Sequence record: PP236086.1
Length of the DNA stretch: 64,000 nucleotides
Source of the DNA: Enterobacter phage ZX14
Reading direction: 5' to 3' (one strand)
Positions 2,531 to 31,702 of this stretch are shown here, piece after piece. The notes below the pieces were generated by a model. It did no database searches, was not told the DNA's origin, and was given only the letters and a program-made list of their open reading frames with translations. Made by a program: the position numbers and the translations under genes. The number at the start of each line of letters is the position of its first letter. Within the stretch, counting starts at the first letter, position 1.

Positions 2531-2542
2531 ATTAATTTAGTC

Positions 2543-3050: not shown

Positions 3051-3107
3051 AAACCGTTCCTATACAAAAATGGGATGTAGCTATTACACCACATCCCTTA
3101 GAAAGCA

Positions 3108-3284
3108 TTAATGGCTTAATGGACCCCATCCGCCTTCAATTTTATAAGCTTGCCCACGAACTTTAGTTAATGAACCATCCGGGTTTTCTACTGAAATAGT
3201 AACATATTGAGCAAAGAGAGGTTTCTCTTCAGCCCAAAGATAACCAAATTCACCAGTAGCTAAAGTAATCCAATATTGTTTCAT
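3108..3284 (-). CDS. hypothetical protein, 58 aa (not in supplied ORF track)
   Basis: ATG at 3284 with an AAGGAG RBS. Upstream there is a T4 late-promoter-like TATAAATA (rc of 3311-3318) and a hairpin tacgagg..cctcgta at 3298-3319. Translation MKQYWITLATGEFGYLWAEEKPLFAQYVTISVENPDGSLTKVRGQAYKIEGGWGPLSH. Confidence 0.3.
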   Translation of the reverse strand: MKQYWITLATGEFGYLWAEEKPLFAQYVTISVENPDGSLTKVRGQAYKIEGGWGPLSH

Positions 3285-3336
3285 ATGAGCTCCTTATTAC
3301 GAGGCAAAAATACCTCGTATTATTTATAACAGAACT

Positions 3337-5991: not shown

Positions 5992-6385
5992 CTTTTAGTC
6001 CTTGTAACATAATAATTGCAGCGTGAACTTCTTCCATTGTAGTAATGGTCAGACGAATTTCAGGAATCTTATGGATTCTGTTAAATTGTTCTAAGTCGCT
6101 CGTATCGCTTGAAGTATTACCGTATTCTCTAAGGAAAGCGGCTTCACCTTTAGTAAGGTGGCATGAATGATCAGCACCATATTTGTGGGCAATTTCTGCC
6201 GCGGTGAATGTGTTACCAGACATATCTTCAAAATACGCATATATGCCTTCGCTTGGGCTCAGTTTAGGTTTAAACGGGCCAATGTCATCAAAAATTTTAA
6301 TTAAATTTTTATTGGCTGCACACTGAATCATGAATCCTTCACGGTCGCCGATAACATAGAATTTATTAGGGTCTAAAGTTGTCAT
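5978..6385 (-). CDS. hypothetical protein, 135 aa
   Basis: ORF in the 39-dexA intergenic accessory block. No motif recognised. Confidence 0.5.
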   Translation of the reverse strand: MTTLDPNKFYVIGDREGFMIQCAANKNLIKIFDDIGPFKPKLSPSEGIYAYFEDMSGNTFTAAEIAHKYGADHSCHLTKGEAAFLREYGNTSSDTSDLEQFNRIHKIPEIRLTITTMEEVHAAIIMLQGLKDASV

Positions 6386-7182
6386 TTGAACACCATATTA
6401 GTTAACATTTCGATAGCTTTAAGACGAGATACTTCATCTTCAACTACAAAGCGAATTTTACCTTTGACTTCAACCTTTGACTGGATTTCGCAGACAGTTT
6501 CTTCAGACTCATCTACTACACCATAGTCCTGCTCAGGCTGTTCAATTTCCCCACATAACTTAAACCGCTCACTACGTTTAGGTAATTCATCTGTAATATT
6601 ATTACCACGAATAAAACCTGAAATGATAGGACGTTTCCATTCTTCAAAATGGATAATTTCGTCTTCAGTCAAAGTGAAATTCAGGTAGCAGAATTTAGCG
6701 CGATCAGCAGGGTCAACATATTTCAAACGCGTTGTTTTAACATCATAACTTGACCCTAAACAGACGCTTTCAACGATAAATGGGTTATAGCCGATTTCGC
6801 GTAAGAAATTCATATTGATAGAAGAACTTCTTTTCAATTCTAAAGCATCTTTTAGTTGATAAGCGGCATTAACACACCAGACCTTGTCAAAAGCAACTTT
6901 AAAATAAGTACCCTCATTAACCGCATCTAAATGCAAAAAATCTGTTTCACCTGCGTGGTTAACTACTCTCTGAGCGTTACCATAATCGTCTACTTCAATA
7001 ACTTTAAAAGGATGAGTTCCTACAAAGTTAGCGAACACACGATTATCAGTACAGCGCTGCATGAATAAAGCACGGTCGTGTGTGCTTTTAAAATTATAGT
7101 AATAGCCTTCAGTGAACTTATGCATTGTAAACTTCCTTCCAGTAATGAGCTCCATCTTCGGTGATTTCTTGGAATACACCAT
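6382..7182 (-). CDS. hypothetical protein, up to 266 aa (start possibly MELITGRK or MHKFTEGY)
   Basis: Long ORF whose stop overlaps the next start. No motif recognised. Confidence 0.5.
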   Translation of the reverse strand: MVYSKKSPKMELITGRKFTMHKFTEGYYYNFKSTHDRALFMQRCTDNRVFANFVGTHPFKVIEVDDYGNAQRVVNHAGETDFLHLDAVNEGTYFKVAFDKVWCVNAAYQLKDALELKRSSSINMNFLREIGYNPFIVESVCLGSSYDVKTTRLKYVDPADRAKFCYLNFTLTEDEIIHFEEWKRPIISGFIRGNNITDELPKRSERFKLCGEIEQPEQDYGVVDESEETVCEIQSKVEVKGKIRFVVEDEVSRLKAIEMLTNMVFK

Positions 7183-7339
7183 ACAGAGGAATTTTTGATT
7201 CTACAGTTTCATATACATAGAAAACCGTAGTATGACTTAAATGGTCATTCCAGCTTTTTTCAACAACGACCAAGTCATTAGCATAACGAACATCGTCAAA
7301 CTGACCGCCGGTGATGTTTAAAGTAGTTTTAGCTTTCAT
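7118..7339 (-). CDS. hypothetical protein, 74 aa
   Basis: ATG at 7339 with a GAGGAAAAC RBS, immediately downstream of the PeSL-type early promoter at 7355-7401. Confidence 0.4.
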   Translation of the reverse strand: MKAKTTLNITGGQFDDVRYANDLVVVEKSWNDHLSHTTVFYVYETVESKIPLYGVFQEITEDGAHYWKEVYNA

Positions 7340-7354
7340 TTTGTTTTCCTCTCG

Positions 7355-7401
7355 TTTGTTGGTGTAGGAACATAGTATCATGAACCTACACCGTTGTAAA
7401 C
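7355..7401 (-). promoter_or_regulatory. early promoter embedded in inverted repeat (PeSL-like)
   Basis: On the minus strand, GTTTAC (rc of 7396-7401) is followed by a 17-nt spacer and a TAnnAT -10 box. The IR ggtgtagg (7361-7368) / cctacacc (7385-7392) flanks the -10. Confidence 0.55.
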
Positions 7402-7413
7402 ACTTATTTTCGA

Positions 7414-7863
7414 TTAACGAACTTTCAGAATTCCAGCTACGCAGCTACGTGGCACGACAGTGAAATCACCTGCATGAACAACGTTAAGCAGTTCTACGCC
7501 GTCTTCAATCCACTGGTCAGAAACCCAGCCACAAGTACGGGAGCGGAATGGAGTTTCAAAACAAACTGCTTTAGTAAGCAGATCGGTTGGGTCTTTGATA
7601 ATCAGTGGCTTAATCTGAGTCAGATACATATGAGCCACATCTTCATCGACAACATAACCACCTATTTTAGACGGATATTTGCTTGTAGGGGCATCAGAGC
7701 CAATGACTTCAGTCACGTGTTCAGGTTTAACATAACCGACAACGCCAAAGTCTGTACGAACTTTATAACCATCACGAGTAGAAGTACCGACTACAGTACC
7801 GGTTTCGCCAGCAATTTTAGAGCCAGACAGGAAAGATACGTATACACGAGAACCAATTTTCAT
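7414..7863 (-). CDS. hypothetical protein, 149 aa
   Basis: ORF with no recognised motif. Confidence 0.5.
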   Translation of the reverse strand: MKIGSRVYVSFLSGSKIAGETGTVVGTSTRDGYKVRTDFGVVGYVKPEHVTEVIGSDAPTSKYPSKIGGYVVDEDVAHMYLTQIKPLIIKDPTDLLTKAVCFETPFRSRTCGWVSDQWIEDGVELLNVVHAGDFTVVPRSCVAGILKVR

Positions 7864-14411: not shown

Positions 14412-15926
14412 TTAGACAATTGTATCTTTTAAGAAGGATGCAAACAGAGAACCACGACGAGCATAACCAGCATCGTTAGGATGCACAAGGTCATGCGAAG
14501 TGTATTCTTCAGCATTTTCTTTAGTAATCCAGCCTTGGACGTCAACAAACTTCAGTGAATGTTTTTCAGCCTGTTCCATTACAGCCGTACGAATCTTATT
14601 AATTGCTTCTGTTTCACCTTGCGGCGTAGCAGGACCAATTAAAATGACCGGGACTGTAGGGAAATTGGTTTTAACAATTTCAAGAGCAGCGTCCATATTA
14701 GTCTTAAGTTCTTCTACTCTACCTGCTACAGAATCATTATAGCCTAAGCTAAAGATAATATAATCAGGAACTCTAGACAATGTCAGCAATTTATTGGTAA
14801 CACGAGTTGCTGGGACCCTTTCACCGGTAGAGGTCCAGCCAGAACCACCAATACCATCTGCTAATCCGTCTACGCCTAAATGGTCACACATAATACGGAA
14901 ATCGTTAAAGCTTGGCTGAGTTGCTTCGGTACCGAAGGTATATGAATCACCCATCTGCCATACGAATTTACGAGTACGTGGAGGCTTGGACAACGTATCA
15001 GAAGATGAACCTAAGTTCAAGCCGCCGAATGCACTGTTAACGCCTGCTAATGAATATGAGCGTGATTTACGTTCACCGCCCCAATCAACTAAATAGACAA
15101 ATGAAGAACCAGATGAATCAGTAGTTATGCTCTGTGTACCGACTCTTAACCCATCAACATAAAGCTCACAAATAGTATTAAGACCTGCTAATTTAATTTC
15201 AAATTTAGGAGAGTCAGTAACCCAGTTAGCTCTAAATTGTGTGCCATTTCCGATACCATTCCCACGATAACCAGAAGTAGAATCTTTTACATCAGAACCC
15301 CAATAATCGAAAGCAGTATCAGTACGTTCTTTAGAAACACCTGCATACATAGATGTTGCGTTAGTACCACGATAAGTAAGGTTGAATGTTGCACCTGTCC
15401 CTGTCGTTATATTAGCACCATTGTTTCCATTACCCGCTTCAGTAGCACAAGGGTTCGTAGGAGGAGTTGTGTATACACCACCTTGACGGACAGAAGCGGT
15501 TGTTATAGCACCTTCAGCACCTACTGCAGTAACACGAATTAATGTTGGCGCTGATTTAACTCCACCAGAAACATGAATAATATCACCAAACTTATAACCT
15601 GTACCACCATCAACAATTACTGCCGTATCTAAAGCACCACTACCTTTATAAAGATTCGTTGCAGGAGCAGGAGAAATAGGAGCAAATGGAGGGATAATTT
15701 CAGGAAGTTCTGGGATAATTGGTGGTATTACTTCGCCAAACATTACTTCGATATTATATTTTTGCCATTCTACATCCTGTCCTTTTTCAAAGACTGTAGA
15801 ATATAGTGGTTCTTCACTTAAAGAAAGGTTATAAAAAGAGCCTGCTATTTTATGAGCATTTGAATACACCGTAAAATAAACTGATACTTCTATACCCGAT
15901 CTTAACTTCAAATTTATATATTTCAT
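14412..15926 (-). CDS. Soc-domain fusion protein with C-terminal SGNH/GDSL hydrolase (putative capsid-displayed esterase)
   Basis: Residues ~1-66 align with the adjacent Soc (YINLKL / YVNIKTF; GIEVSVYFTVYSNAHKIAGSFYNLSLSEEPLYSTVFE vs GVEVSVAFKVYSDAHRIAGAHYQIFPSEEPAYADVVE). A Pro-rich linker follows, then a G/T/N-rich domain. The SGNH blocks are GDSY (FVWQMGDSYTFG), GYND (FSLGYNDSV) and DLVHP (SHDLVHPNDAGY). The gene has its own promoter and terminator. Confidence 0.7.
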   Translation of the reverse strand: MKYINLKLRSGIEVSVYFTVYSNAHKIAGSFYNLSLSEEPLYSTVFEKGQDVEWQKYNIEVMFGEVIPPIIPELPEIIPPFAPISPAPATNLYKGSGALDTAVIVDGGTGYKFGDIIHVSGGVKSAPTLIRVTAVGAEGAITTASVRQGGVYTTPPTNPCATEAGNGNNGANITTGTGATFNLTYRGTNATSMYAGVSKERTDTAFDYWGSDVKDSTSGYRGNGIGNGTQFRANWVTDSPKFEIKLAGLNTICELYVDGLRVGTQSITTDSSGSSFVYLVDWGGERKSRSYSLAGVNSAFGGLNLGSSSDTLSKPPRTRKFVWQMGDSYTFGTEATQPSFNDFRIMCDHLGVDGLADGIGGSGWTSTGERVPATRVTNKLLTLSRVPDYIIFSLGYNDSVAGRVEELKTNMDAALEIVKTNFPTVPVILIGPATPQGETEAINKIRTAVMEQAEKHSLKFVDVQGWITKENAEEYTSHDLVHPNDAGYARRGSLFASFLKDTIV

Positions 15927-16302: not shown

Positions 16303-16830
16303 TTAATAACCACGGTCTTGACGAGCAAAGTTTTCTGCGTTCTTCAGATGGTAAAGCTTGTAGATTTCTTCTGCGTCCATACCAAGAGCCATGAACTTAT
16401 TCAAGAAGAAATGAAGCTGATCAATGAGTTCGAATTTAATTTCAAGCTGGTCTTCAGGAGACAGGTCTTTAATCTTTTTAGCCTGCATTTCAACATGCCG
16501 TGCTTTCCATGGTTTCCAGACAGCAGACGCTTCTTTTTCACCATTGCTCATGCCACCGAGTGCAGTGTACAGTTCACGGGTTTCATCAGCAAGATAATCA
16601 TCTTGTGCACGCAGCCAAGCCAGAACTTCACCTGCGGTTTCCAGCGAATCTGGATGGCGATTGCTTTCTGGTTTGTCTTTAGCCAGACGAACCTGCAGAG
16701 ATTTCTGCATATCAAGCATTGCCTGCAGTGGGTCTTCATTGCCACGCAACATACCGTAATATCGTCCAGTCGCCTGGTCTAAAGCCGCTTTATCTTTTAC
16801 CAGTTGAGAACATTCGTTAAAGTGTGCCAT
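16303..16830 (-). CDS. 56: dCTP pyrophosphatase gp56 (MazG-like)
   Basis: MAHFNECSQL...LQAMLDMQKSL...EKEASAVWKPWKARH...LYHLKNAENFARQDRGY matches T4 gp56. The ATG at 16830 has an AGGAA RBS. The track ORF starts at an upstream TTG. Confidence 0.9.
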   Translation of the reverse strand: MAHFNECSQLVKDKAALDQATGRYYGMLRGNEDPLQAMLDMQKSLQVRLAKDKPESNRHPDSLETAGEVLAWLRAQDDYLADETRELYTALGGMSNGEKEASAVWKPWKARHVEMQAKKIKDLSPEDQLEIKFELIDQLHFFLNKFMALGMDAEEIYKLYHLKNAENFARQDRGY

Positions 16831-16875
16831 TTTATTTCCTTTCAATTCAAGTAGAGATTAATTATAACATTATGT

Positions 16876-21738: not shown

Positions 21739-22064
21739 CTTTTCTTCATATTAATTTCTTTAAGAGCTTCGTTAATTTGCATTGTAACACATTTTTCAAC
21801 ATGCTCTGCTAATTCGCCTTTACGCTCTTCGGAAGGAGTACCAAAATCTACGGTCACTTGACCTTTTGGAGAAATATCAATCTTTGTAACATAAACCATA
21901 TGGCTACTACCATCTGGGAGTGTTAACAAAATCTCCTGCATAACAGAACCCATGCTCTGTTTAATAATGTCTAAAGACTTCTCGTAATACTGAGGACCAC
22001 TAGGGCCCTCTTCGGTGTCTTTGACAAAGTTGTCCAGGTCGGACAGGTCTAAGTCATTACTCAT
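21723..22064 (-). CDS. 40: gp40-like head vertex assembly chaperone (by position), ~114 aa
   Basis: It lies between uvsX and 41 as in T4. Probable start MSNDLDLSDL. There is no strong motif, so the call rests on synteny and size. Confidence 0.45.
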   Translation of the reverse strand: MSNDLDLSDLDNFVKDTEEGPSGPQYYEKSLDIIKQSMGSVMQEILLTLPDGSSHMVYVTKIDISPKGQVTVDFGTPSEERKGELAEHVEKCVTMQINEALKEINMKKRWWKW

Positions 22065-23232
22065 TATCTTCTTCCATTTCGTCAAGAGCATTCTCAACAT
22101 CGGCTGCGGATGGTTTACCTTTCTTACCTAAGTCAGGAATTTTACTTGTCGCTTTAGCATTTAACAGGTCAGCAACAGCGTCATCAACTTCTTTAATAGA
22201 AGAGATTGCACCAAGTTTGTATTTGGTTTCGATTGCATCACGGAACGGTTTATGCTTAAACAGAGGACCCCAGAATTCAACATCATCTGTAGCCTTAGCA
22301 CGCCATGATTTTTCTTCCTGAACCATTTCACCGGTTTCTTCATCAAGGAATGAACGAGCATACCAGCCAGCTTTTGGTTTAACAACGAAACCGAGGTCTG
22401 TAGCTAGTTCAAGCAGACCACTGAATGGGTCAATACCACCTTTAAAGTTCACCGTAATCGGGAACGTGGATTTTTCTTGAACAGTACGAGACTTTTCAGC
22501 TTTCAGAGTGAAGTCATAACCAGTGAGTTCAGTGCCATCTTTAATCTGGCGTTTAGAGATATAGAATACCGTTGACGCAGAATAAAGAATACCAGTACCG
22601 CCACCCATGATTTCTTTAGGGTACATACCACCGATTTCCATTGCCGTATGGTTAATCGCTACGCACGGAATATCTTTAATAGTTAGATATGGCGTTACGA
22701 TACGGAACAGAGATTTCAGTGACTTAGCACGGGACATATCACCAACTTCTTTTTCGTCCAGAGCATCTTGTGTTTCTTTCTTAGATGCAGTGTTACCGAT
22801 GGAGTCGATGAAGATAATAACCTTTTCACCACGCTGGATTTCTTCCAGTTGGTTGGTCATATCAATTTTCAGCTTCTCTACTGACTGGATTGGCGTATGA
22901 ACCACTCGTTCCAGGTCTACACCCATTGAACGGAAGTAAGATTCGGAAGCACCAAATTCAGAGTCATAGAACAGACAAATTGCATCTGGATATTTCTTCA
23001 TATATGCGGCGACCATTGTCAAACCAAACAGAGTTTTAAAGTGTTTAGATGGCGCAGCGAAAATAGTCAGACCAGATTGTAAGCCAGTATTCAGACCACC
23101 ACCTAACGCAATGTTTAACATTGGGATACGAGTAGGGACTTCGTCACGACCGTTAAACAGTTTAGACTTAGTCAGATCAGCAGTCAGTTTAGTAGTAGAA
23201 GCTTTAATCAGGCGAGATTTTAAATCGGACAT
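22057..23232 (-). CDS. uvsX: UvsX recombinase (RecA-like)
   Basis: 391 aa (T4 UvsX is 391 aa). Walker A-like TIFAAPSKHFKT and the RecA fold. Confidence 0.9.
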   Translation of the reverse strand: MSDLKSRLIKASTTKLTADLTKSKLFNGRDEVPTRIPMLNIALGGGLNTGLQSGLTIFAAPSKHFKTLFGLTMVAAYMKKYPDAICLFYDSEFGASESYFRSMGVDLERVVHTPIQSVEKLKIDMTNQLEEIQRGEKVIIFIDSIGNTASKKETQDALDEKEVGDMSRAKSLKSLFRIVTPYLTIKDIPCVAINHTAMEIGGMYPKEIMGGGTGILYSASTVFYISKRQIKDGTELTGYDFTLKAEKSRTVQEKSTFPITVNFKGGIDPFSGLLELATDLGFVVKPKAGWYARSFLDEETGEMVQEEKSWRAKATDDVEFWGPLFKHKPFRDAIETKYKLGAISSIKEVDDAVADLLNAKATSKIPDLGKKGKPSAADVENALDEMEEDNE

Positions 23233-23414
23233 TATATTTTTCCATTGGTCACCATTATATTTTTCTCACAGTTAGATTAGAAGGTAATTATATCACTTTG
23301 GGTTTACAGCACGTTCTACACACGCCTTAGCCCATTTTTTATTATTTTGACGCTCAAAAAACAATAAAACAAATAGACCGCCTAGGCTAAGAAGACCTAG
23401 GCTAATAATAAAGA

Positions 23415-23966
23415 TTAACGGGCCCATTTGATAATCATCGTAATCAAAGCATTACGCTCGTTTGCATTAAAACTTTTAATCTTGTTGTTGCCGTAATGGT
23501 TCAGCAATTGATAGATATGAACATCATTTGTATCTGCAAACTCTTCGAACAATGAGATGACCTTATTGAAACCTTCTGCAGACAAAGAAATCAAGTCATC
23601 TTCAAAGTCTTCGGTCATTTCATTACGAGTCAGAATGATTGGCAGAACACTATTATGTGTACAAAGACGATGGAAGTCTTCTTCATACATATTAAGAACA
23701 GACTCTTTCTCTCGTCGAATCATGCCATAAACCCAGTTTGAAATATAACCACGGTCTAACAGATAAATCTTAGATGGGTCTAAGTATTTCAACATTGTTT
23801 CGAAACAAGCCACTTCATTTCGTGACTTGATATCGAACCGTCCTTCAGAAGTACGTTTTGGGAATTCAATCTTTACATAACGGTCAGAGATTTCACAGAT
23901 ATCGCGAATAAGAGATGTTTTACCTGCGTTATCTGCACCATCAACTAAAATAATTTTGGTTTTCAT
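23415..23966 (-). CDS. P-loop kinase, thymidylate/dNMP-kinase-like, 183 aa
   Basis: Walker A ILVDGADNAGKTS. LDRGYISNWVYG resembles the TMK DRY/lid region. It occupies the slot where T4 has beta-glucosyltransferase. Confidence 0.55.
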   Translation of the reverse strand: MKTKIILVDGADNAGKTSLIRDICEISDRYVKIEFPKRTSEGRFDIKSRNEVACFETMLKYLDPSKIYLLDRGYISNWVYGMIRREKESVLNMYEEDFHRLCTHNSVLPIILTRNEMTEDFEDDLISLSAEGFNKVISLFEEFADTNDVHIYQLLNHYGNNKIKSFNANERNALITMIIKWAR

Positions 23967-24862
23967 TCGTTAATTACCACGTCACTGTACATAGGAATAT
24001 TATACGGCGAAGAAATGAAAGCGCCAAAATAAATGAATTCTGCTAAACCAGGATGGAATACCTTTTCAGGGTTCTCGAAATACTGGATATGTGGTCTGCC
24101 TTTCAGTACTTGATAATATTCTGCTTTGGTCAGTTTAGTCAAACGAATCACAGCTTCTTCTGGATAATGACTACGGTCGAAACTATCATTAGGGTCTGTG
24201 ATATAAACCGGTTGCTGAGTTTGAATTGCACATTCAACCACTTGGTTGAAACGATAACATGGGTCACTGATACGGAATGGATGGAAGATACCATTCACAT
24301 GTACCGCTTCAAGACCCGCAGCGTAGCGCTCGATTACGCTAGGACGCACGACCTTTTGGTCTACAATAATCTTATAGTCATCAGCCCCGTGTTTAACCAG
24401 GACGTCCTTCTGACACTGATTCAATACTGTCGTATACTTACTACGATTTACTGATGCAACATCTTCTTCAATGAATTGGTCGATATAGAAAAGAGGCTTT
24501 TCTGGATTCATTGTGATGTTAAAGTTGAACCATACCGGATGACGACCCTTATAACCTGTGATATCTGTTACCAATCCAACAACATCATAATATTCTACTA
24601 ATGAGTCAACGACCCATTGGTTTTCTTCCCAGAAATGTTTACGAGTTTCGAAAGCATTTTCTTTATACCACAGAGGGATAAATTCGAACTCAGGGAACAA
24701 TTCACGAAGTTCATCTGCATCAGAAGCATTTTTAGGAATAGCGATAATATCGCCAGCACGAGCACGGTTCAAATGAAGCTGAAGATTGCCGTCCTTCAGA
24801 ACGGCATATTCACCAGTTTCATGAGACCGCATACTATAAATTGGTACGCGGAGATGAGGCAT
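23963..24862 (-). CDS. hypothetical protein, 299 aa (candidate hmC-modifying transferase by position)
   Basis: No recognisable motif. It lies immediately downstream of gp42, in place of T4 beta-gt, within the sugar-nucleotide gene cluster. Confidence 0.35.
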   Translation of the reverse strand: MPHLRVPIYSMRSHETGEYAVLKDGNLQLHLNRARAGDIIAIPKNASDADELRELFPEFEFIPLWYKENAFETRKHFWEENQWVVDSLVEYYDVVGLVTDITGYKGRHPVWFNFNITMNPEKPLFYIDQFIEEDVASVNRSKYTTVLNQCQKDVLVKHGADDYKIIVDQKVVRPSVIERYAAGLEAVHVNGIFHPFRISDPCYRFNQVVECAIQTQQPVYITDPNDSFDRSHYPEEAVIRLTKLTKAEYYQVLKGRPHIQYFENPEKVFHPGLAEFIYFGAFISSPYNIPMYSDVVINE

Positions 24863-25551
24863 TAGATAAAACCTTTCACATAATCAAAGTCACGCTCAAA
24901 TACATGAGCACTCACCATGGTGTGGGTATAATCACCCAGTTCAACACCACATTCTTTTGCAATGAATTCCATCAGTTTGCCTTGCAGATAGAAATCCAGC
25001 TGCATTACAATAGCACAGTTTTGTGACCGCATATGACAGTGAGTGTAAAGCTTACCTTCACGGATATAATACGTTACCGAGTCTGTACAAGGGTATTCAA
25101 GGGACTCGTCGCTATCTAAGAGCGCTTGGTCTTGTTCTTGGAGAATCTGGAACACAACACGTCTCGAGTTAGGCTTCTCTTTAAGCTCTTTAAGTAAGGC
25201 TGGGAGTTGGGCCACAATTCGAGGTCCATAGAAAGTGTTGAAGTTTGCAGGCAATACGTCACTTTTCGGCTTAGCAATGAACTTAGCAACATTTGGATAT
25301 TCCTTAAATGCTTCTTCTGCATCTGTACCGCCTGAAATCATGAACTGCCAGAATGCTTCAGCATATTCATAACTAATACGGTTGATACGTTCGTCTTTGA
25401 ATTTATAAGTGGATGGGTCTAATACACGAAGGGTCATTGAACCAATTTCATTACAACGGCCAATACGAGATTCAATTTCAAAATCAGGCAATTCAAGAAT
25501 CTTTTCGTTAGCCTGTTTAAATGCACTTTCAAAAGTAGAGCAAACAATCAT
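24862..25551 (-). CDS. 42: dCMP hydroxymethylase gp42 (thymidylate-synthase fold)
   Basis: The active-site region YPCTDSVTYYIREGKLYTHCHMRSQN aligns with T4 gp42 FMCTNTVQYLIRDKKINAVVNMRSND. 229 aa. Confidence 0.8.
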   Translation of the reverse strand: MIVCSTFESAFKQANEKILELPDFEIESRIGRCNEIGSMTLRVLDPSTYKFKDERINRISYEYAEAFWQFMISGGTDAEEAFKEYPNVAKFIAKPKSDVLPANFNTFYGPRIVAQLPALLKELKEKPNSRRVVFQILQEQDQALLDSDESLEYPCTDSVTYYIREGKLYTHCHMRSQNCAIVMQLDFYLQGKLMEFIAKECGVELGDYTHTMVSAHVFERDFDYVKGFI

Positions 25552-25553
25552 TT

Positions 25554-25937
25554 TTATACCTCTGGAATATATGGTTCGGCTTTATGCAACAAATTGTTTT
25601 GCATAAGCATTTTAAATGTTGCAGGTGACATTGCCTTATCATCAATAATCCAATCATATCTTGGTTTATGAGTCAGCAATTCATGGTACTTCAGTCCAAT
25701 CTTTTCCAGATTCTTAAGAAGTGGAGGTAATATTTCCGAAGCGATTCGGTCTGGTCCAACACTCTCCATACCACGTGCAGTATACAGGACAATTGTATTA
25801 CCTTCGTCATACAGCTTATTAATCATGGACACCATTTCGGTGTCCGGTACGAAGTTTTCGTAATCACGGCCATTATCCCAGACCGTGATAGTATTATCAA
25901 TATCAAAACATAAACGCATTATCGAATTCGTTCCCAT
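25554..25937 (-). CDS. HAD-superfamily phosphatase, 127 aa
   Basis: Motif I FDIDNTIT (DxDxT). A short HAD core like the GmhB/KdsC sugar-phosphate phosphatases. Confidence 0.6.
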   Translation of the reverse strand: MGTNSIMRLCFDIDNTITVWDNGRDYENFVPDTEMVSMINKLYDEGNTIVLYTARGMESVGPDRIASEILPPLLKNLEKIGLKYHELLTHKPRYDWIIDDKAMSPATFKMLMQNNLLHKAEPYIPEV

Positions 25938-27607
25938 TGATGAGTGATATCGCCACCGATTGGTTTGTAGACTGCACCGGTTTCTTTATCGATGAGTTCC
26001 CACTTATCACTGTTCTTTGTGATAAGAGTTGCCGTAATAGCTTCTGGCAGGTCTTTAGCGACTGTACCGTCTTTCAACATACGGCCCATTTTACGTAATT
26101 GTTTAGTCAGCAGATACATGCCGTAGTAATAGGCTGAAACCGCTTTCAATGGGTTGTTCTTGAAATAACCACCGAGAGCAATCCAGATAATCGCTACAGC
26201 CAGATGGTGATGTTCGTTGAACGTGTCCATCTTTTCATATTTGTAGATTAATGGCTCGATATTAATATAAGCCTTTTCGCCTTCAATATTCAAACCACCC
26301 CATAAGGCATCTGCGTTAAATTCATCATACCCACTTACAGCATATAATACTTTTGCTTCATCATACAAGCGTGGACCATAAATCTTCGTGTTACCAAAAT
26401 AGCCGCGAGGGTCAATAAATTTAATATCGCCATCGATAAACGTAATCATCGTATTACTGAAGTTAGGGTCGCCATGAATAACATGATAACGTTTAGAATA
26501 TTGATAACGAACAAGATGGTTCAATGCCTGTTTCAACATTGGCACTAAACGACCGATTTTAATACCATTCACATGAGTAATCTTACCAAATGAATCAATC
26601 ACTGGCTGAATACTTGCACAACGGTCGATAACTTTATCATGGAATTCTTTCTTGAAATCGGCTTCTATTTCTTTACGGTCGACACTCTTACTCATTGCAT
26701 CTTCAAAACGAAGAGCATCAAGAATTTTATCAATCATACTGATACGAGCATTTGATTTCAATGTTTTGATATGCTCAAACATAGGCAGACCATGAATTCG
26801 TTCCATTTCAAATTCACCTGCTTCTTTATTGTAGTTAACGATTTGAGGAATCGAATTCGAATGAACAGAATAATACCATTTGACTTCATCTTCTTGAAGA
26901 GAACGGCCTTGTTCTGTTACTGCAATTTTAGTTACAGTATCTTCGTTTATTTCCACTGAATTAAAACTACGATTCAGTTCACGGTCTGCATGTGCATTAG
27001 CCAGTTTAGGCTTATCGCCTAAATCGATTAAATTCAGCAGTTCGGATTGACGCATTGATTCGCCATAAACGAAATCAACAAAGTCACGCCCTTCACAATG
27101 GTCATTGATTTCTTCTTTGGTTATGCCCATGAAGAATTCCCAGTCTTTAAACTGGTAAATGCCTACTACATTACCACCTGTTGCACCGACGTTACGAAGT
27201 GAATAACCGTCGAAATTATAACGGCATTCATCGCCCTTCGTATAAATGGCGTTCTCACCCCAAGACCATGAACCAAAGTCTGGGATAATGTCACACCAGT
27301 TCACGACGACATTATGACCATCCAGAATAGGATGTAATAATGCCAATGCATAAGCAGAACCATAAGATTCATCTACAGTCTGAACATTAATTTTCAGACC
27401 TTCTTGTTCTGCATAAGCTTCGACCATGCCCTGGAATTTAGAATGCACGACAACAATAACTTCATCTGCACCCAAATCAGTATAAATGGTCGCTAAGTTT
27501 TTGAGAATGGTGTCTTGTTTATAGTTCACAAGCACTTTAGGGATATGATGAGTGATTGGATATAAACGAGTAGCCAATCCAGCTCCGAGAATAACAGCCT
27601 TTTTCAT
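25919..27607 (-). CDS. bifunctional sugar-1-phosphate nucleotidyltransferase / APH-fold sugar kinase, 562 aa
   Basis: The N-terminus MKKAVILGAGLATRLYP is the G-x-G-T-R-L signature of NDP-sugar pyrophosphorylases. The C-terminal half has the kinase motifs HGDPNFSNTMI and DIKFIDPRG (Brenner HGD..N and DxD). The start was moved to 27607 (RBS GAGG) to avoid overlap with the upstream gene. Confidence 0.65.
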   Translation of the reverse strand: MKKAVILGAGLATRLYPITHHIPKVLVNYKQDTILKNLATIYTDLGADEVIVVVHSKFQGMVEAYAEQEGLKINVQTVDESYGSAYALALLHPILDGHNVVVNWCDIIPDFGSWSWGENAIYTKGDECRYNFDGYSLRNVGATGGNVVGIYQFKDWEFFMGITKEEINDHCEGRDFVDFVYGESMRQSELLNLIDLGDKPKLANAHADRELNRSFNSVEINEDTVTKIAVTEQGRSLQEDEVKWYYSVHSNSIPQIVNYNKEAGEFEMERIHGLPMFEHIKTLKSNARISMIDKILDALRFEDAMSKSVDRKEIEADFKKEFHDKVIDRCASIQPVIDSFGKITHVNGIKIGRLVPMLKQALNHLVRYQYSKRYHVIHGDPNFSNTMITFIDGDIKFIDPRGYFGNTKIYGPRLYDEAKVLYAVSGYDEFNADALWGGLNIEGEKAYINIEPLIYKYEKMDTFNEHHHLAVAIIWIALGGYFKNNPLKAVSAYYYGMYLLTKQLRKMGRMLKDGTVAKDLPEAITATLITKNSDKWELIDKETGAVYKPIGGDITHQWERIR

Positions 27608-27648
27608 TTTGTGTTCCTCATTAAATGGTACATCCATTGTACCATAAT

Positions 27649-27792
27649 TTAATTGAAGCAATTGTATTTGGCCTGGAGCCAGAGCATACACCAACCTATG
27701 ACTAATGTAGGAATCATTAGAGGTACAGTGATAGACCAATAAATTGTTAGTCCGAAGAAGGCTAACAGAAGGAATCCGGCTAAGTATTTCAT
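27649..27792 (-). CDS. hydrophobic micro-protein, 47 aa (not in ORF track)
   Basis: MKYLAGFLLLAFFGLTIYWSITVPLMIPTLVIGWCMLWLQAKYNCFN. Its ATG overlaps the SIS gene stop (ATGA). Confidence 0.3.
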   Translation of the reverse strand: MKYLAGFLLLAFFGLTIYWSITVPLMIPTLVIGWCMLWLQAKYNCFN

Positions 27793-28427
27793 TTCTCACC
27801 ACGGAGCTGAGCACCAAGTGCACCACCAGGGTGGAAGCGCAGGAAGTCGTCAGGAGTAAAACGACGTGCGGCTGAAAGGTTAATTGCAAAGGTATCAATT
27901 AGAGCCAAGAGCAGCGTCGTAGACATTGTAGGCGCTAATTTGTTGTCATCAATCTCAATAGCTCGACCAGTACAGAAATTGTAGTCGAACATCTTTAAGA
28001 TATCATCAGGTAGACTTGGATTACAATGAAGAAGAATCTGATTCACACCAGGACGAATACCACGCAGATGATTAACAACGCCTAACATTTCTTCAGTCTT
28101 ACCTGAACGAGAGATATGGACCAGCACATCATTAGGACCAATGAAACCAGCATCACCGTGTGAATAATGGCCTGTATTCAAATACATACTTGGAATACCA
28201 AGCGAGGCCATTGTTTCTGAAGCCTTAGTGGCGATGTTAGCGTTTTTACCTACACCAGTAATAATTACACGACCTTCATAATCGGACAAACCAGGGACGC
28301 CTAGGACTGCCAGGATTTCAAGATAATTTCTATAATCTTTCTCAACTATAGATGTCAGTATATCAAGAGCTTGTGATTGAAGTTCTAATGCATTTTTAGC
28401 TCGGTCAATTGGATTGATGTGGTTCAT
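27789..28427 (-). CDS. SIS-domain sugar-phosphate isomerase (arabinose-5-phosphate isomerase / GmhA-like), 212 aa
   Basis: SIS motifs ITGVGKNANIATKASETMASLG and HISRSGKTEE. It has only the SIS domain, with no CBS pair. Confidence 0.7.
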   Translation of the reverse strand: MNHINPIDRAKNALELQSQALDILTSIVEKDYRNYLEILAVLGVPGLSDYEGRVIITGVGKNANIATKASETMASLGIPSMYLNTGHYSHGDAGFIGPNDVLVHISRSGKTEEMLGVVNHLRGIRPGVNQILLHCNPSLPDDILKMFDYNFCTGRAIEIDDNKLAPTMSTTLLLALIDTFAINLSAARRFTPDDFLRFHPGGALGAQLRGEK

Positions 28428-28953
28428 TACGTTTTACCCTATTACATTCATTTTCAGTTTTAAGAGCTTTGGCCTGAAGCTTTGTGTAGCTCTTTTTCCA
28501 AAGGTCAAAAGCTGTACTGTATTCATAAGATTTACGATAATCGCTTCGTGATGGGCGTTTATCAATAAGTTTATTATATTCTTCTTTGAACGTATCATTG
28601 ACAAAACGCTCACAGTATTCTGCAATACGAGTGTTACGGTCAATTTCATGGTTCTTGGCTACAGCACGAAGATAATCTTCACGTGGTTGTGCGTTACGAC
28701 GTTCTTCATCAAGCTTGGCTGCTAATTCAGCTTGAGCAGCACAGTTCTTACCACATTGATTTGGAGCTCTGGTATACGTAATGCCTGTACCGTTACGCCA
28801 TTGGACTTCACCTGTACGTGCGTCAACTTCAGCCTGGGTCCTAATCTTTCCTACTTCAGACGCATTGTAGATAGGCCCTTGAGGCATCTGACAACCGGCC
28901 AGAAGAGTAGCAGCTGCTATTAAAGCAATTTTAAATTTCATTTTAATCCTCAA
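28405..28953 (-). CDS. putative lipoprotein, 182 aa
   Basis: Signal peptide with a lipobox LLAGC. Charged, coiled-coil-rich mature part. It lies between gene 43 and the 42 region, where T4 carries imm. Confidence 0.5.
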   Translation of the reverse strand: MRIKMKFKIALIAAATLLAGCQMPQGPIYNASEVGKIRTQAEVDARTGEVQWRNGTGITYTRAPNQCGKNCAAQAELAAKLDEERRNAQPREDYLRAVAKNHEIDRNTRIAEYCERFVNDTFKEEYNKLIDKRPSRSDYRKSYEYSTAFDLWKKSYTKLQAKALKTENECNRVKRNEPHQSN

Positions 28954-28996
28954 AAAGTGTTAGGCCATTTTATCACAGCCTAACACATTTGTAAAC

Positions 28997-31702
28997 TTAG
29001 AAATCGAACATATCGAACAGACTTGCTTTCTTTTCATAGTCAATTTTAGCTGCATCGGTGAAAGCAGTTAAAGGTTTGACGAATGTTTTCTGGAACAACG
29101 TGTTGTAGTCCATCCAAGCCAGAACTTGGTCACGAATCTGAATTGGTAGTTCAATTCCTGAAGGCCATGCAATAGACGTTTCACCAAATGGGTTACCTTC
29201 ACGAAGTGGAAGAGTATAAACCTTTTCACCATCTACAATTTGTGGAACGGTGAGGTCGCCTTTGGTTGCTCGCATATAAGCTAGAACACCTTTGATATGG
29301 CCAGGGCATTTATAACCTGGGAAACCATTATCATTATACTTCTGAATGTTGTTCGCTGAAGATACACCTGCGATGCTGATATAATTCAGTTCATTGAATT
29401 CTTTGTTGAACTCTTTGAAATATTCTTGCAGACTTCCTTCACCTTCTTGAAGCATACGACGAATACATTCTTTTAGTGCTTTCTGAACAGCTTTTGGAGT
29501 ACTTGATTTCTGAGTTTCAAGTCCCATGATTTTCAGTTTTGGTTCAACGAAACGAGTACCTTCCATGTCCCATACGTTCAGGGCATATCGTTTCTTGCCG
29601 GTCCAGAAACCACCAATACCATCAGAACCAAGTGGTGGTCCTGCGATAGCTTCTCGGTCCATGAACATCAAATGTTCTCTGTTGTTCATGTATTCACACA
29701 TTTCACGGAAGCCAGCATCAATAGCAGGTTCCATACGTTCACGTGCGAACTTATCTAAGAAGTCTACATAATGGTTCGTGTCGCGGAATTTTTCCATTCC
29801 TACTTTCTCAAGGATTTTATCAGCCTTCACATAAATGGAGTCAGTATCACCATAAAGTACGAATGCTTCATTTTCTGTACCAAGAGTTTTGTTCAGATAT
29901 TCATTAACCTTACGTTCAATCCACTGCAATGCCATCTGACCAAAGGTTGTGATAGCCGTAGCATTTCGAAGGTCGTAATAACGGAACCATACGTTACCAA
30001 GTGCACCATAAAGTGAGTTGATAAGCAACTTACGGTTAATCTGAGCAGTGTTACCTGCAACTTCACAACGTTCTGCTTTGAACAACATTGATTCTAATGC
30101 TTTCTGACTTAATTCGTGAAGTTTAGATTTAACTTCATCATTGAAGTCGAAACGGTAATCAACTTCAAATTCAGGCTTATCACCTTTAGTCGTTTTCTTA
30201 GCTTCTTTAATAAGTTCTTGGTTACGCTGAGCAGCCAGCATATAACCTTTATGCTCTTTACGCTGTTTAAAGACCTTAGTGATTTCAACCGGAACTACGC
30301 CTTGGAAGCTCTTATCGTACATCATACCATTTGGAGAACATGAATACACATCAGATGGGCGTGGAGCTGTACCAGCGATATATTCAGCCAATGGATGTAC
30401 TTTGAACTGACCAACTAATGTTTCTGGGCTGATATTAACTTGACGAATGATACTTGGGTACAGAGATGTCAAGTCAAAGCTCATTACATATTTGTAGGCA
30501 TTCGGAATCGGTTCTTTAACAAATGCACCAGGATAAGGCAGAACTGGGTGTGACTGCATTTGTGGAATAACTTTCTTCTGGTCTTTAAGTGAGTTAAAGA
30601 TGATTGCGTCCCATGTTTTGATAGGACTAAACACAGATTGAATCTGCATCTTCGCATAATAACCCATTGACAAGCTCAGGTTAATGAACTGTCGTTTCAT
30701 ATCAATTTGAATAACACGATAAACGTCGATAATGTTATAACTGATATAACGTTGGTGGTTAGTTTCACGCAACTTAGAAATAGGACCATCATATGGCAGT
30801 TTACCGACCTTCAATTCAAATTCAGAGACATAGTCTAAAGAATAAGATGGCTGGTTGGTGAAACTAAATTTCTTGTACAGGTCAATATAATCCAGCATAC
30901 TGATACCGTACAGTTGGATAATCTGACGGGCGCCACCATACATACTTTCAACTTCTTTAATACGAACACGACGGTGAGGAGACAGACGTTTAGCGGTCTT
31001 TTCACTGAAGATATTCTTCAAACGGTTATACACGTACGGCACGTCAAATGCCTCAACGTTCCAACCTGTTAAAACAACAGGAGTTTTCTGTTCCCAAAGG
31101 TTCAGATATTCCAGAAGAAGTTCTTTTTCATCATCGAATGGCATATAGACAATTTTATCTGCGATTTCTTCAGGCAGAGCATCACCACCTTCTTCTTCAA
31201 GTTTGCGAGCCAGTTTCAATGACCATTCTTTGACATTACCATATGGACCACCTAAAAGGTCAAACACATAGAACTTATCATCGATAGAATCATAATGGGT
31301 AATCGCATCGATTGGATGCTTAGCTTCAGCCGGTTCAGGGAACCCGTCAGGAGATGTTACCTCGATGTCAAAGTTTGCTACACGAATTTTAGTCTGGTCG
31401 TAATGGATTTCACCACGATAAGTGTCGCTGATATAAGCCAACTTATAATCGTCCATGCCTAGTGCTTCAAGACCCATGTCGTCCATACGACGCATCCAAT
31501 CTTTAGCATCACGCATGCCTGGGAAAGTTTTCTTGACACAATATTTGCCATAGATATCTTTATATTCTGTAGGCTCATTAGAGTGCATGAACATACATGG
31601 AGCATAAGTTACTTCACGAACTTGTTCGCGACCATTACTATCGATATAACGTTCGAAGATACTGTCACCGAATTGTTCGACTGTCAAATAAAATTCTTGC
31701 AT
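28997..31702 (-). CDS. 43: DNA polymerase gp43 (family B)
   Basis: 901 aa. Exo I FDIEV, pol motifs DxxSLYPS (SFDLTSLYPSII), KILINSLYG and YGDTDS. It is closely similar to RB69/T4 gp43 over its full length. Confidence 0.95.
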   Translation of the reverse strand: MQEFYLTVEQFGDSIFERYIDSNGREQVREVTYAPCMFMHSNEPTEYKDIYGKYCVKKTFPGMRDAKDWMRRMDDMGLEALGMDDYKLAYISDTYRGEIHYDQTKIRVANFDIEVTSPDGFPEPAEAKHPIDAITHYDSIDDKFYVFDLLGGPYGNVKEWSLKLARKLEEEGGDALPEEIADKIVYMPFDDEKELLLEYLNLWEQKTPVVLTGWNVEAFDVPYVYNRLKNIFSEKTAKRLSPHRRVRIKEVESMYGGARQIIQLYGISMLDYIDLYKKFSFTNQPSYSLDYVSEFELKVGKLPYDGPISKLRETNHQRYISYNIIDVYRVIQIDMKRQFINLSLSMGYYAKMQIQSVFSPIKTWDAIIFNSLKDQKKVIPQMQSHPVLPYPGAFVKEPIPNAYKYVMSFDLTSLYPSIIRQVNISPETLVGQFKVHPLAEYIAGTAPRPSDVYSCSPNGMMYDKSFQGVVPVEITKVFKQRKEHKGYMLAAQRNQELIKEAKKTTKGDKPEFEVDYRFDFNDEVKSKLHELSQKALESMLFKAERCEVAGNTAQINRKLLINSLYGALGNVWFRYYDLRNATAITTFGQMALQWIERKVNEYLNKTLGTENEAFVLYGDTDSIYVKADKILEKVGMEKFRDTNHYVDFLDKFARERMEPAIDAGFREMCEYMNNREHLMFMDREAIAGPPLGSDGIGGFWTGKKRYALNVWDMEGTRFVEPKLKIMGLETQKSSTPKAVQKALKECIRRMLQEGEGSLQEYFKEFNKEFNELNYISIAGVSSANNIQKYNDNGFPGYKCPGHIKGVLAYMRATKGDLTVPQIVDGEKVYTLPLREGNPFGETSIAWPSGIELPIQIRDQVLAWMDYNTLFQKTFVKPLTAFTDAAKIDYEKKASLFDMFDF

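Follow-up and report, generated by a model that had tools for sequence, protein, structure and literature searches.

Background

The T4 glucosyl-hydroxymethylcytosine system (gp42, alpha-gt and beta-gt) occupies the same genomic slot as the phage arabinosylation cluster, and the two share a common strategy, in which an enzyme of the thymidylate synthase family produces a C5-oxygenated dCMP and a UDP-sugar then provides the glycosyl group for the base. T4 draws on host UDP-glucose, so that no sugar pathway is needed, and its hydroxymethylation uses folate.

The gene set for UDP-arabinose synthesis and DNA arabinosylation has already been described and is explained in papers published from 2018 to 2026. 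It is found in RB69 and HY126 (gp45 to gp55 in RB69), and the cluster of Acinetobacter phage DLP3 is of the same arabinosyl-5-hydroxycytosine kind. The original report on RB69 assigned arabinosyl-hmC (PMC6024577); this assignment has since been corrected as erroneous (PMC13326640; PMC13390438). In fact, RB69 gp48 makes 5hodC, as determined by 18O2 labelling and LC-MS, and the D169N substitution is diagnostic of 5hodCMP synthases, having been validated on nine further enzymes (PMC13326640). As to the sugar, HY126 AfhE, AfhF and API take ribulose-5-phosphate to UDP-arabinofuranose (He et al. 2026, as cited in PMC13326640), and in the account given there the kinase acts first, AfhE converting Ara5P to Ara-1,5-P2, after which the phosphatase AfhF acts on the 1,5-bisphosphate. 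UDP-Araf is the donor for phage DNA transferases in vitro (PMC13326640), and a glycosyltransferase fold is reported for RB69 gp46:47 (PMC13326640, Table 1). No single transferase showed activity on 5hoC DNA in vitro (PMC13326640), so that the first arabinose may be added at the nucleotide or at the DNA stage. Thanatos, with one ara-GT, is described as mono-arabinosylated, and Kanagawavirus is among the genera listed with a conserved cluster (PMC13326640).

The ADP- and GDP-heptose pathways (GmhA, HldE or HddA/HddC, GmhB) follow the same chemical logic as the phage sugar branch. They employ a SIS isomerase, an anomeric kinase that acts on an already phosphorylated sugar, a HAD phosphatase for the distal phosphate and a nucleotidyltransferase; in HldE the kinase and the transferase are fused in one polypeptide. 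The AmgK-MurU and LicA-LicC pairs also combine an APH-fold kinase with a small nucleotidyltransferase.

Gene content and organization of the cluster

The window, a 64-kb stretch of the genome of Enterobacter phage ZX14 (PP236086.1), carries the arabinosylation gene set as a minus-strand block at 23415-28427, which is very probably the Kanagawavirus version of the phage arabinosyl-5-hydroxycytosine DNA hypermodification cluster. All functions in the window are assigned by homology and fold, and the biochemistry belongs to the HY126, RB69 and DLP3 proteins. The features discussed are as follows.

16303..16845, minus strand: gp56-like dCTPase/NTP pyrophosphohydrolase, outside the cluster (PHROG 173, E=1.6e-39)
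23415..23966, minus strand: P-loop thymidylate-kinase-like nucleotide kinase, 183 aa, RB69 gp45 homologue
23963..24862, minus strand: putative base-proximal DNA arabinosyltransferase, 299 aa, RB69 gp46:47 homologue
24862..25551, minus strand: predicted 5-hydroxy-dCMP synthase of the thymidylate synthase superfamily, 229 aa (RB69 gp48 identity, active-site residues)
25554..25937, minus strand: AfhF-type small HAD phosphatase, 127 aa or 121 aa (DxDxT motif, HY126 homology)
25919..27607, minus strand: bifunctional AfhE-type enzyme, 562 aa (70.8% full-length identity to the HY126 protein)
27008-27607, minus strand: its N-terminal domain (about residues 1-200), predicted arabinose-1-P uridylyltransferase (Pfam, model, Foldseek)
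25922-26995, minus strand: its C-terminal domain (residues 205-562), predicted APH-fold arabinose-5-P 1-kinase (model, Foldseek, motifs)
27649..27792, minus strand: predicted membrane micro-ORF, 47 aa (PHROG 3610, E=5e-26)
27789..28427, minus strand: SIS-only D-arabinose-5-phosphate isomerase without CBS domains, 212 aa, RB69 gp55 homologue

A preliminary description had placed a module of four ORFs (SIS, 47-aa, fusion and HAD) at 25554-28427. All four are present there on the minus strand, and its proposal of a three-enzyme route that builds an NDP-pentose de novo out of a host sugar phosphate and feeds the glycosylation of a modified phage cytosine is upheld; the genes that it named do belong to the cluster, but the module reaches further, adding the transferase and the P-loop kinase at 23415-24862. 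Its comparison with RB69 was the right one. Seven genes, with 62.6-81.6% identity to their Mosigvirus orthologues, keep the same order and the same position between uvsX and gp43, and the nucleotide kinase, transferase 1, 5hodCMP synthase, HAD phosphatase, nucleotidyltransferase-kinase fusion, 47-aa ORF and SIS isomerase of RB69/HY126 are matched gene for gene. RB69 gp49 and gp50 (the U32-family gene and an adjoining small ORF) are absent from the window, where the gap between hydroxylase and phosphatase genes is 2 bp. An extra gene with respect to RB69/HY126, encoding a lipoprotein of 178/182 aa (28405-28953) that did not figure in the preliminary description, lies between the isomerase and polymerase genes.

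By sequence the phage belongs to the genus Kanagawavirus, the window being 95% identical to Kosakonia phage 305 of that genus. Over the whole block, nucleotide identity is 92-95% to phage 305 and to Enterobacter phages Q7622 and IME523. The block matches Q7622 and IME523 as one collinear piece, and the gene content of Q7622 is identical to that of the window, lipoprotein gene included; in phage 305 a homing-endonuclease insertion separates the transferase gene from the hydroxylase gene. In Enterobacter phage CIP9 (88% nucleotide identity), the hydroxylase and phosphatase genes are separated by a U32 gene and one of 79 aa that resembles chorismate mutase. On a wider scale, the sugar genes co-occur with hydroxylase and transferase genes in over 250 phage genomes drawn from many genera.

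The 47-aa micro-ORF is 62-64% identical to its RB69, HY126 and LC53 homologues and overlaps the isomerase gene by ATGA, the two being translationally coupled. A counterpart of 52% identity, left unannotated, lies in the 42-imm intergenic region of T4, and because of this presence in T4 the micro-ORF is probably a conserved gene of the T-even backbone and not part of the sugar pathway, with which it had been grouped; it is not specific to arabinosylating phages. Nor does T4 have only imm between gp43 and gp42, as had been stated, since imm, imm.1 and this unannotated homologue are all found there.

The sugar-nucleotide enzymes

The isomerase, the HAD phosphatase and the fusion are 62-71% identical to the HY126/RB69 proteins (API, AfhF and AfhE, respectively), and the family calls first made for them hold. 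The SIS protein (69.6% identical to HY126 API) is matched by Pfam SIS (E=1e-7), PHROG 5670 'arabinose 5-phosphate isomerase' (E=1.8e-105) and NCBIfam KpsF/GutQ (E=1.6e-32), the KpsF/GutQ, KdsD and GutQ profiles being matched in their SIS part only, and in the PDB by 3etn (E=1.3e-23) as well as 5uqi and 2xhz. It is predicted to turn ribulose-5-P into arabinose-5-P. The HAD protein, 62.6% identical to its HY126 counterpart, has the DxDxT motif and matches NCBIfam TIGR01689, a capsule-biosynthesis phosphatase (E=1.5e-10), and the PDB entries 9iqw (E=4.6e-49), which is identical to the HY126 protein, and 1xpj (E=5.6e-9); it would strip the 5-phosphate from arabinose-1,5-bisphosphate. Its start is ambiguous: ATG 25937 gives 127 aa, and ATG 25919, which is used in the annotation of Kosakonia phage 305, gives 121 aa and a TAATG overlap with the upstream stop.

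The 562-aa fusion belongs to PHROG 4098 (E=2.6e-276). Pfam NTP_transferase matches its first 110 or so residues (E=8.5e-10), and the AF2 model of the N-terminal domain (pLDDT 93) has as best Foldseek matches MurU, RmlA and GDP-mannose pyrophosphorylases (E about 1e-9), with residues G10, R14, P23 and K24 invariant in the homologue alignment. The C-terminal half has no sequence match in Pfam, NCBIfam or PDB; its model (pLDDT 93) resembles APH(2''), choline/ethanolamine kinases, 5-methylthioribose kinase and N-acetylhexosamine 1-kinase (E down to 1e-6). Two of these, MTR kinase (2olc) and NahK (4ocv), are sugar kinases acting at the anomeric carbon. Across 45 homologues, the residues of the kinase signature (K227, E241, H378-G-D380-x4-N385 and D399) vary little or not at all, and Pfam APH (PF01636) is found in several distant homologues.

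On the model of HY126, the SIS isomerase would convert host ribulose-5-P to D-arabinose-5-P, the APH-fold domain of the fusion would phosphorylate C1 to give arabinofuranose-1,5-bisphosphate, the small HAD phosphatase would take off the 5-phosphate, and the N-terminal nucleotidyltransferase domain would join arabinofuranose-1-P and UTP into UDP-arabinofuranose. The preliminary description had the phosphatase act before the anomeric kinase, which is an older proposal, the HY126 biochemistry in the account of PMC13326640 placing the kinase first; the view that the enzymology is essentially uncharacterised is likewise out of date, given the work on HY126 AfhE and AfhF reported there.

The same enzyme logic could in principle serve another pentose or carrier, giving UDP-xylose, a deoxypentose or a sugar on CDP or GDP. 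Sequence matches of the N-terminal domain are scattered over cytidylyl-, guanylyl-, thymidylyl- and uridylyltransferases, so that nucleotide specificity is not readable from them, and the study of Shewanella phage Thanatos found UDP-xylose pyrophosphorylase activity in a neighbouring protein, referring to the sugar as a (deoxy)pentose. However, the isomerase, at 70% identity to the HY126/RB69 enzyme, lies within the KpsF/GutQ family of arabinose-5-P isomerases, the fusion is 71% identical to an enzyme reported, in the account of PMC13326640, to form UDP-arabinose, and Thanatos itself is treated as mono-arabinosylated in that paper; we thus regard a different sugar or carrier as highly improbable and retain UDP-arabinofuranose as the predicted product.

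Two comparisons help to place this branch. Although the HddC and HAD-IIIA models match weakly in the NCBIfam search of the cluster proteins, an ADP-heptose pathway of the HldE type is ruled out: the kinase has an APH/choline-kinase fold where heptose pathways use a ribokinase or GHMP fold, the transferase has a MurU/RmlA fold, and the likeness is one of pathway logic only. Moreover, the phage fusion has the order transferase then kinase, takes a pentose and delivers its product to DNA, whereas the heptose pathways supply LPS. Structurally, the N-terminal domain comes closest to MurU (4y7u) and LicC (1jyk), and the C-terminal one to APH(2''), choline kinase LicA (4r7b) and NahK; unlike the phage fusion, AmgK-MurU and LicA-LicC are separate proteins, have no isomerase or phosphatase step and use other substrates.

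The predicted modified base

The gene beside the phosphatase had been called a dCMP hydroxymethylase. Identity of its 229-aa product to RB69 gp48 is 81.6%, against only 24.5% (over 151 residues) to T4 gp42; in the PDB it matches the HY126 crystal structures 9iqc/9iqu/9ir2 (E=2e-128), T4 gp42 structures not being among the best 60 matches. In an alignment with E. coli ThyA, T4 gp42, RB69 gp48 and the HY126 enzyme, it shows the catalytic Cys155, LEYPC (L143E), RSQN (D169N) and QLD (N177D), whereas T4 gp42 retains Asp at ThyA position 169. Judged by these residues and its homology, the neighbour is a flavin/O2-dependent 5-hydroxy-dCMP synthase and not a hydroxymethylase; the base is accordingly predicted to be 5-hydroxycytosine that bears arabinose in ether linkage, and not the arabinosyl-hmC of the preliminary description.

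A T4-type hydroxymethylase supplying arabinosyl-hmC DNA, with a sugar branch running from isomerase to phosphatase (through free arabinose), anomeric kinase and nucleotidyltransferase, is in our estimation a shade less probable again than another pentose. It has behind it the first RB69 report, the GenBank name 'deoxycytidylate 5-hydroxymethyltransferase' of the Kosakonia phage 305 homologue and the phosphatase-first order that persists among the putative functions of PMC13326640 Table 1. Against it stand D169N, the 82% identity to an enzyme for which 5hodC formation was established, the distance from T4 gp42, the correction of the RB69 assignment and, in the account of PMC13326640, the Ara5P kinase activity of HY126 AfhE and the action of AfhF on the 1,5-bisphosphate.

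The absence of alpha- and beta-glucosyltransferase genes, already noted, is borne out: tblastn of T4 alpha-gt and beta-gt against the 64-kb window gave nothing better than E=0.19, and both syntenic slots are otherwise occupied or empty. A T4-type glucosyl-hydroxymethylcytosine system was thus rejected on the Asn at 169, the low identity to gp42 and the lack of both glucosyltransferases in the window.

For arabinosyl-5-hydroxycytosine, the base branch would begin with C5 hydroxylation of dCMP by the thymidylate synthase homologue with flavin and O2; the resulting nucleotide would be taken to the triphosphate by kinases and built into DNA by the polymerase. The 183-aa kinase is 72.4% identical to its HY126 homologue and falls in PHROG 761 'thymidylate kinase' (E=4.7e-42), and its gene overlaps the stop of the transferase gene. 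By analogy with T4/RB69 biology (PMC13326640, Table 1), the gp56-like dCTPase would act upstream of the hydroxylase, in dCMP supply and dCTP exclusion.

Transferases and predicted extent of arabinosylation

The 299-aa transferase would form an ether bond between arabinose and the 5-hydroxyl group. It is 68.6% identical to its HY126 homologue, which has the same position beside the hydroxylase, and is assigned to PHROG 3891 (E=2.9e-151); homologues occur in 367 phage records, and the nearest relatives each have a single copy.

That the sugar-nucleotide genes serve a target other than DNA (host LPS, capsule, Kdo or an auxiliary metabolic function) and lie beside modification genes by chance is the least probable reading of all, since the database names (KpsF/GutQ, KdsD, TIGR01689 'capsule biosynthesis phosphatase', 'phosphoheptose isomerase') and the lipoprotein gene and membrane micro-ORF in the same block are outweighed by tight packing and translational coupling with the hydroxylase and transferase genes, by the co-occurrence in more than 250 phage genomes, by the use of UDP-Araf by phage DNA transferases in vitro (PMC13326640) and by the presence of the micro-ORF in T4, which has no such pathway.

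With DNA arabinosylation as the preferred function, the number of sugars per base can be considered. The di-/tri-arabinosylating subtype (RB69, HY126, DLP3) has transferases of the RB69 gp3 / DLP3 gp76-77 family, and none was found in the 64-kb window: tblastn with RB69 gp3, the second arabinosyltransferase, gave nothing better than E=0.2, and the rIIA-gp39 gap, the syntenic gp3 site, has no ORF of at least 140 aa. This search covers the visible 64 kb of a genome of about 174 kb, and an unrelated second transferase may lie elsewhere. A gp3 homologue is also lacking from every Kosakonia, Enterobacter, Klebsiella and Edwardsiella phage record. Neither a U32 homologue nor the chorismate-mutase/U32 pair, which is kept in the congener CIP9 and in Serratia phage LC53, is present in the window. 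Because only the base-proximal transferase is found, without a gp3-type second transferase or the chorismate-mutase/U32 pair, mainly mono-arabinosylated 5-hydroxycytosine is predicted in virion DNA.

Implications

Arabinosylated 5-hydroxycytosine shields phage DNA from restriction enzymes, glycosylases and CRISPR-Cas, and at the same time exposes the phage to type IV systems such as BrxU. Spotting the cluster therefore forecasts the fate of a phage against host defences and the behaviour of its DNA in sequencing and cloning. Three annotations can be amended: 'dCMP hydroxymethylase / thymidylate synthase' to cytosine hydroxylase, 'phosphoheptose isomerase' to phosphatase, and the 'hypothetical protein' beside the hydroxylase to putative DNA arabinosyltransferase.

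We also raise, tentatively and as a rather unlikely reading, that the window and phages 305, Q7622 and IME523 represent a natural minimal arabinosylation system, with one transferase, only the O2-dependent flavin hydroxylase and the chorismate-mutase/U32 pair lost. A naturally reduced lineage could reveal the contributions of the U32 gene and of the second transferase. If the pair, in the manner of the U32 proteins TrhP and UbiU/UbiV, hydroxylated cytosine at C5 with prephenate and without O2, phages without U32 would make mono-arabinosyl-5hoC only and would be unable to modify their DNA under anoxia, whereas their U32-carrying relatives would be able to do so.

Organization of the cluster and its closest relatives

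The window comes from a T4-like (Straboviridae) genome, and its minus-strand block at 23415-28427 is the gene-for-gene orthologue, in the same order, of the interval between uvsX and gene 43 in the Mosigvirus phages RB69 and HY126.

Genes of the block and its neighbours (coordinates, strand, product, amino-acid identity to the HY126 protein unless stated otherwise)
22057-23232, minus, uvsX
23293-23427, minus, 44-aa ORF between the P-loop kinase gene and uvsX
23415-23966, minus, 183-aa P-loop kinase, 72.4%
23963-24862, minus, 299-aa protein, putative base-proximal DNA arabinosyltransferase, 68.6%
24862-25551, minus, thymidylate-synthase homologue (the hydroxylase), 81.6% to both RB69 gp48 and HY126
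25554-25937, minus, small HAD protein, 62.6%
25919-27607, minus, 562-aa fusion protein, 70.8%
27649-27792, minus, 47-aa membrane ORF, 61.7%
27789-28427, minus, SIS isomerase, 69.6%
28405-28953, minus, lipoprotein gene
28997-31702, minus, gp43 DNA polymerase

The genes are tightly packed: the isomerase stop and the start of the 47-aa ORF overlap as ATGA, the fusion stop overlaps the in-frame ATG of the HAD gene as TAATG, 2 bp separate the HAD stop from the start of the thymidylate-synthase homologue, and the other genes of the block abut or overlap. Scans of the block for promoters and terminators gave little excess over shuffled expectation (25 versus 18.4, and 7 versus 3.9). Over positions 23400-28960 the nucleotide identity is 95.3% to Kosakonia phage 305, 94.0% to Enterobacter phage Q7622 and 92.2% to Enterobacter phage IME523, all three of the genus Kanagawavirus. 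DNA-level matches to part of the block are present in 261 phage records, 14 of which cover at least 80% of it.

Published work already covers this type of system: its chemistry, its enzymes and how widely it occurs in Straboviridae. Arabinose on RB69 DNA was described by Thomas et al. 2018 (PMC6024577), where ORF055c and ORF53_52c were already proposed as UDP-arabinose genes, and Kanagawaviruses are named among the genera with a conserved cluster by Lee et al. 2026 (PMC13326640). For the results of He et al. 2026 and of Mahler et al. 2025, the accounts in PMC13326640, PMC13390438 and PMC13216743 are used. The preliminary description, which reasoned well from raw sequence, therefore concerns a real finding whose explanation is in the literature; what it can still contribute is a correction of annotation and the reduced gene set of the window. 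Database names across the homologues of the cluster are misleading: public records call those of the HAD phosphatase "phosphoheptose isomerase" or "capsule biosynthesis protein", those of the hydroxylase "thymidylate synthase" or "deoxycytidylate 5-hydroxymethyltransferase", those of the transferase "putative RNA polymerase binding protein" or "hypothetical", and those of the fusion "GlmU" or "mannose-1-phosphate guanyltransferase".

The hydroxylase and the predicted base

The thymidylate-synthase homologue had been read as a dCMP hydroxymethylase, an assignment that is not sustained: its identity to T4 gp42 is 24.5% over 151 residues, it carries Asn at ThyA position 169, and T4 gp42 structures were not found among its best 60 PDB matches. 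The top PDB matches are crystal structures of the HY126 enzyme (9iqc/9iqu/9ir2, E=2e-128), and the alignment with E. coli ThyA places the catalytic Cys, Glu at 143, Asn at 169 and Asp at 177. The D169N change is the diagnostic signature of synthases of 5-hydroxy-dCMP (5hodCMP), validated on nine further enzymes by Lee et al. 2026 (PMC13326640). According to the same work, the thymidylate-synthase homologue makes 5-hydroxy-dCMP with oxygen taken from O2 and with a bound flavin, and the DNA of RB69 and of Acinetobacter phage DLP3 contains, by LC-MS and NMR, 5-hydroxycytosine that bears one to three arabinoses, with an ether bond joining the sugar directly to C5. Because the neighbour of the sugar genes is of the 5hodCMP-synthase type and not a hydroxymethylase, the base predicted here is 5-hydroxycytosine and not the hydroxymethylcytosine of the earlier arabinosyl-hmC proposal; the arabinosyl-hmC assignment in RB69 is itself now regarded as an error (PMC13326640, PMC13390438).

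Enzymes of the predicted sugar branch

Profile, PDB and structure-model matches bear out, protein by protein, all the domains that had been recognized from the sequence alone. The isomerase matches Pfam SIS, the KpsF/GutQ, KdsD and GutQ models and the single-domain arabinose-5-P isomerase structures 3etn, 5uqi and 2xhz; with 212 aa it aligns to the KpsF profile over the SIS part alone, so the CBS pair of KdsD is missing. The HAD protein has a DxDxT motif and matches the TIGR01689 capsule-biosynthesis phosphatase model and the structures 9iqw and 1xpj, of which 9iqw, the crystal structure of the HY126 phosphatase, is the top PDB match (E=4.6e-49).

The N-terminus of the fusion matches NTP_transferase and many models of sugar-1-P nucleotidyltransferases. 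For the C-terminal half no match was found with Pfam, NCBIfam, phmmer against PDB or a 3-sequence profile against PDB. A set of 116 homologues was collected and alignments were built, and structures were predicted for the whole protein and for residues 205-562, both with a mean pLDDT of 93. With the full-length model, Foldseek retrieved MurU, RmlA and GDP-mannose pyrophosphorylases, and only the N-terminal domain is represented among the matches listed. The kinase fold of the C-terminal half was revealed solely by structure prediction from a 53-sequence alignment followed by Foldseek, which returned aminoglycoside 2''-phosphotransferases, choline/ethanolamine kinases, 5-methylthioribose kinase and N-acetylhexosamine 1-kinase. 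The last two enzymes act on sugars, which they phosphorylate at the anomeric carbon. Across 45 homologues the kinase signature (K227, E241, HGD380xxxxN385, D399) shows no or almost no variation.

As far as the work of He et al. 2026 on HY126 is relayed in PMC13326640, AfhE, the counterpart of the fusion, is an arabinose-5-P kinase and UDP-arabinose pyrophosphorylase, and AfhF, the counterpart of the HAD protein, dephosphorylates arabinofuranose-1,5-bisphosphate in a Mg-dependent manner. The order reported there, kinase before phosphatase, reverses the one first suggested, and with Lee et al. 2026 and this relayed work the enzymology can no longer be called uncharacterised. The ADP-heptose pathway follows the same logic, with a SIS isomerase, a kinase acting on an already phosphorylated sugar, a HAD phosphatase and a nucleotidyltransferase, but its kinase and transferase folds are unlike those of the fusion.

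Transferases and the expected level of arabinosylation

No homologue of the T4 alpha- or beta-glucosyltransferase was found within the 64-kb window, in agreement with the preliminary description, and the gp47-gp55 slot, the site of alpha-gt in T4, holds no ORF of at least 140 aa in the window. Homologues of the 299-aa transferase, itself related to RB69 gp46:47, occur in 367 phage records, and the gene is single-copy in the nearest relatives. A homologue of RB69 gp3, the proposed second arabinosyltransferase, was not found in the window or in any record of Kosakonia, Enterobacter, Klebsiella or Edwardsiella phages. The gap between rIIA and gp39, where RB69 has gp3, is about 800 bp in the window (2530-3337) and has no ORF of at least 140 aa; this short gap is consistent with a single-transferase system. 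The transferases of DLP3 use UDP-arabinofuranose as donor in vitro (PMC13326640), and the same paper treats Shewanella phage Thanatos, which has a single transferase of this kind, as mono-arabinosylated. Given the absent gp3 homologue, the single-copy transferase of the nearest relatives and the Thanatos precedent, mono-arabinosyl-5-hydroxycytosine is predicted for this phage, with moderate confidence because no more than 64 kb of the genome are visible.

Small and accessory genes

The 47-aa ORF is kept in RB69, HY126, LC53 and phage 305, and lacks annotation in the latter and in the T4 RefSeq record. Its T4 counterpart, 52% identical, lies in the 42-imm intergenic region (NC_000866, about 26230-26367; 6231-6368, minus, in the T4 segment L002), and the ORF has no similarity to T4 Imm. 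To our knowledge T4 has no arabinose pathway; the existence of this counterpart thus led us to reject the ORF as a pathway component and makes it a backbone gene that gives no evidence for a membrane step. The ORF seems to encode a small membrane protein conserved among T-even phages. A perfect 8-bp hairpin, ATGGTACA-ATGGA-TGTACCAT, was observed at 27625-27645, in the 41-nt spacer from the stop of this ORF to the Shine-Dalgarno (GAGGA) of the fusion gene, and could affect translation or RNA processing.

The lipoprotein gene, with the lipobox LLAGC and a likely start ATG at 28941, is placed between the genes for the isomerase and the DNA polymerase and shares 23 nt with the start of the isomerase gene. 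It matches PHROG 1754, for which no function is named, and is absent from RB69 and HY126; LC53 has in the same slot a signal-peptide protein 25% identical, and T4 has at this position the superinfection-immunity genes imm and imm.1. The hydrophobic 44-aa ORF, which overlaps the P-loop kinase stop just upstream of uvsX, bears the label "hypothetical" in Kosakonia phage 305, and PHROG gives no match for it. Elsewhere in the window, a 504-aa ORF (14412-15926, minus) matches PHROG 9703 "head decoration" (E=7e-168), and its N-terminus a "virion structural protein" family. In this region T4 has small genes, soc among them, and an ORF of this size is unusual for the slot.

The slot between hydroxylase and phosphatase

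In the window this slot (25551-25554) is empty, with chorismate-mutase-like and U32 genes both cleanly absent, as it is in phage 305, Q7622 and IME523; tblastn found no U32 gene in the window. RB69 and HY126 have a U32-family gene there (slot at 6257-7662 of the RB69 segment L003; Pfam Peptidase_U32, E=7e-11 for the RB69 protein), and a chorismate-mutase-like gene followed by a U32 gene is found in Serratia phage LC53 (2806-4316 of its segment L006) and in a member of the window's own genus, Enterobacter phage CIP9 (2458-3860 of its segment L008). Of RB69 gp49 and the 79-aa protein of CIP9, only the latter resembles the chorismate-mutase domain of LC53; gp49, considered as a chorismate mutase, has no similarity to that domain and no Pfam hit. 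A kinship between U32 proteins and the hydroxylase was also discarded: the similarity of the RB69 and HY126 proteins to the hydroxylase region of the window (22.8-23.5% identity at about 30 bits, with E between 0.007 and 4e-4 against a very small database) was put down to chance.

Chorismate mutase yields prephenate. TrhP, which forms ho5U in tRNA (PMC6599085), and UbiU/UbiV (PMC10990095) are U32-family hydroxylases that are independent of O2 and take their oxygen from prephenate. By analogy, the chorismate-mutase/U32 pair beside an O2-dependent hydroxylase may be an anaerobic back-up route to 5-hydroxycytosine. If this is true, DNA modification in the lineage of the window would depend on oxygen.
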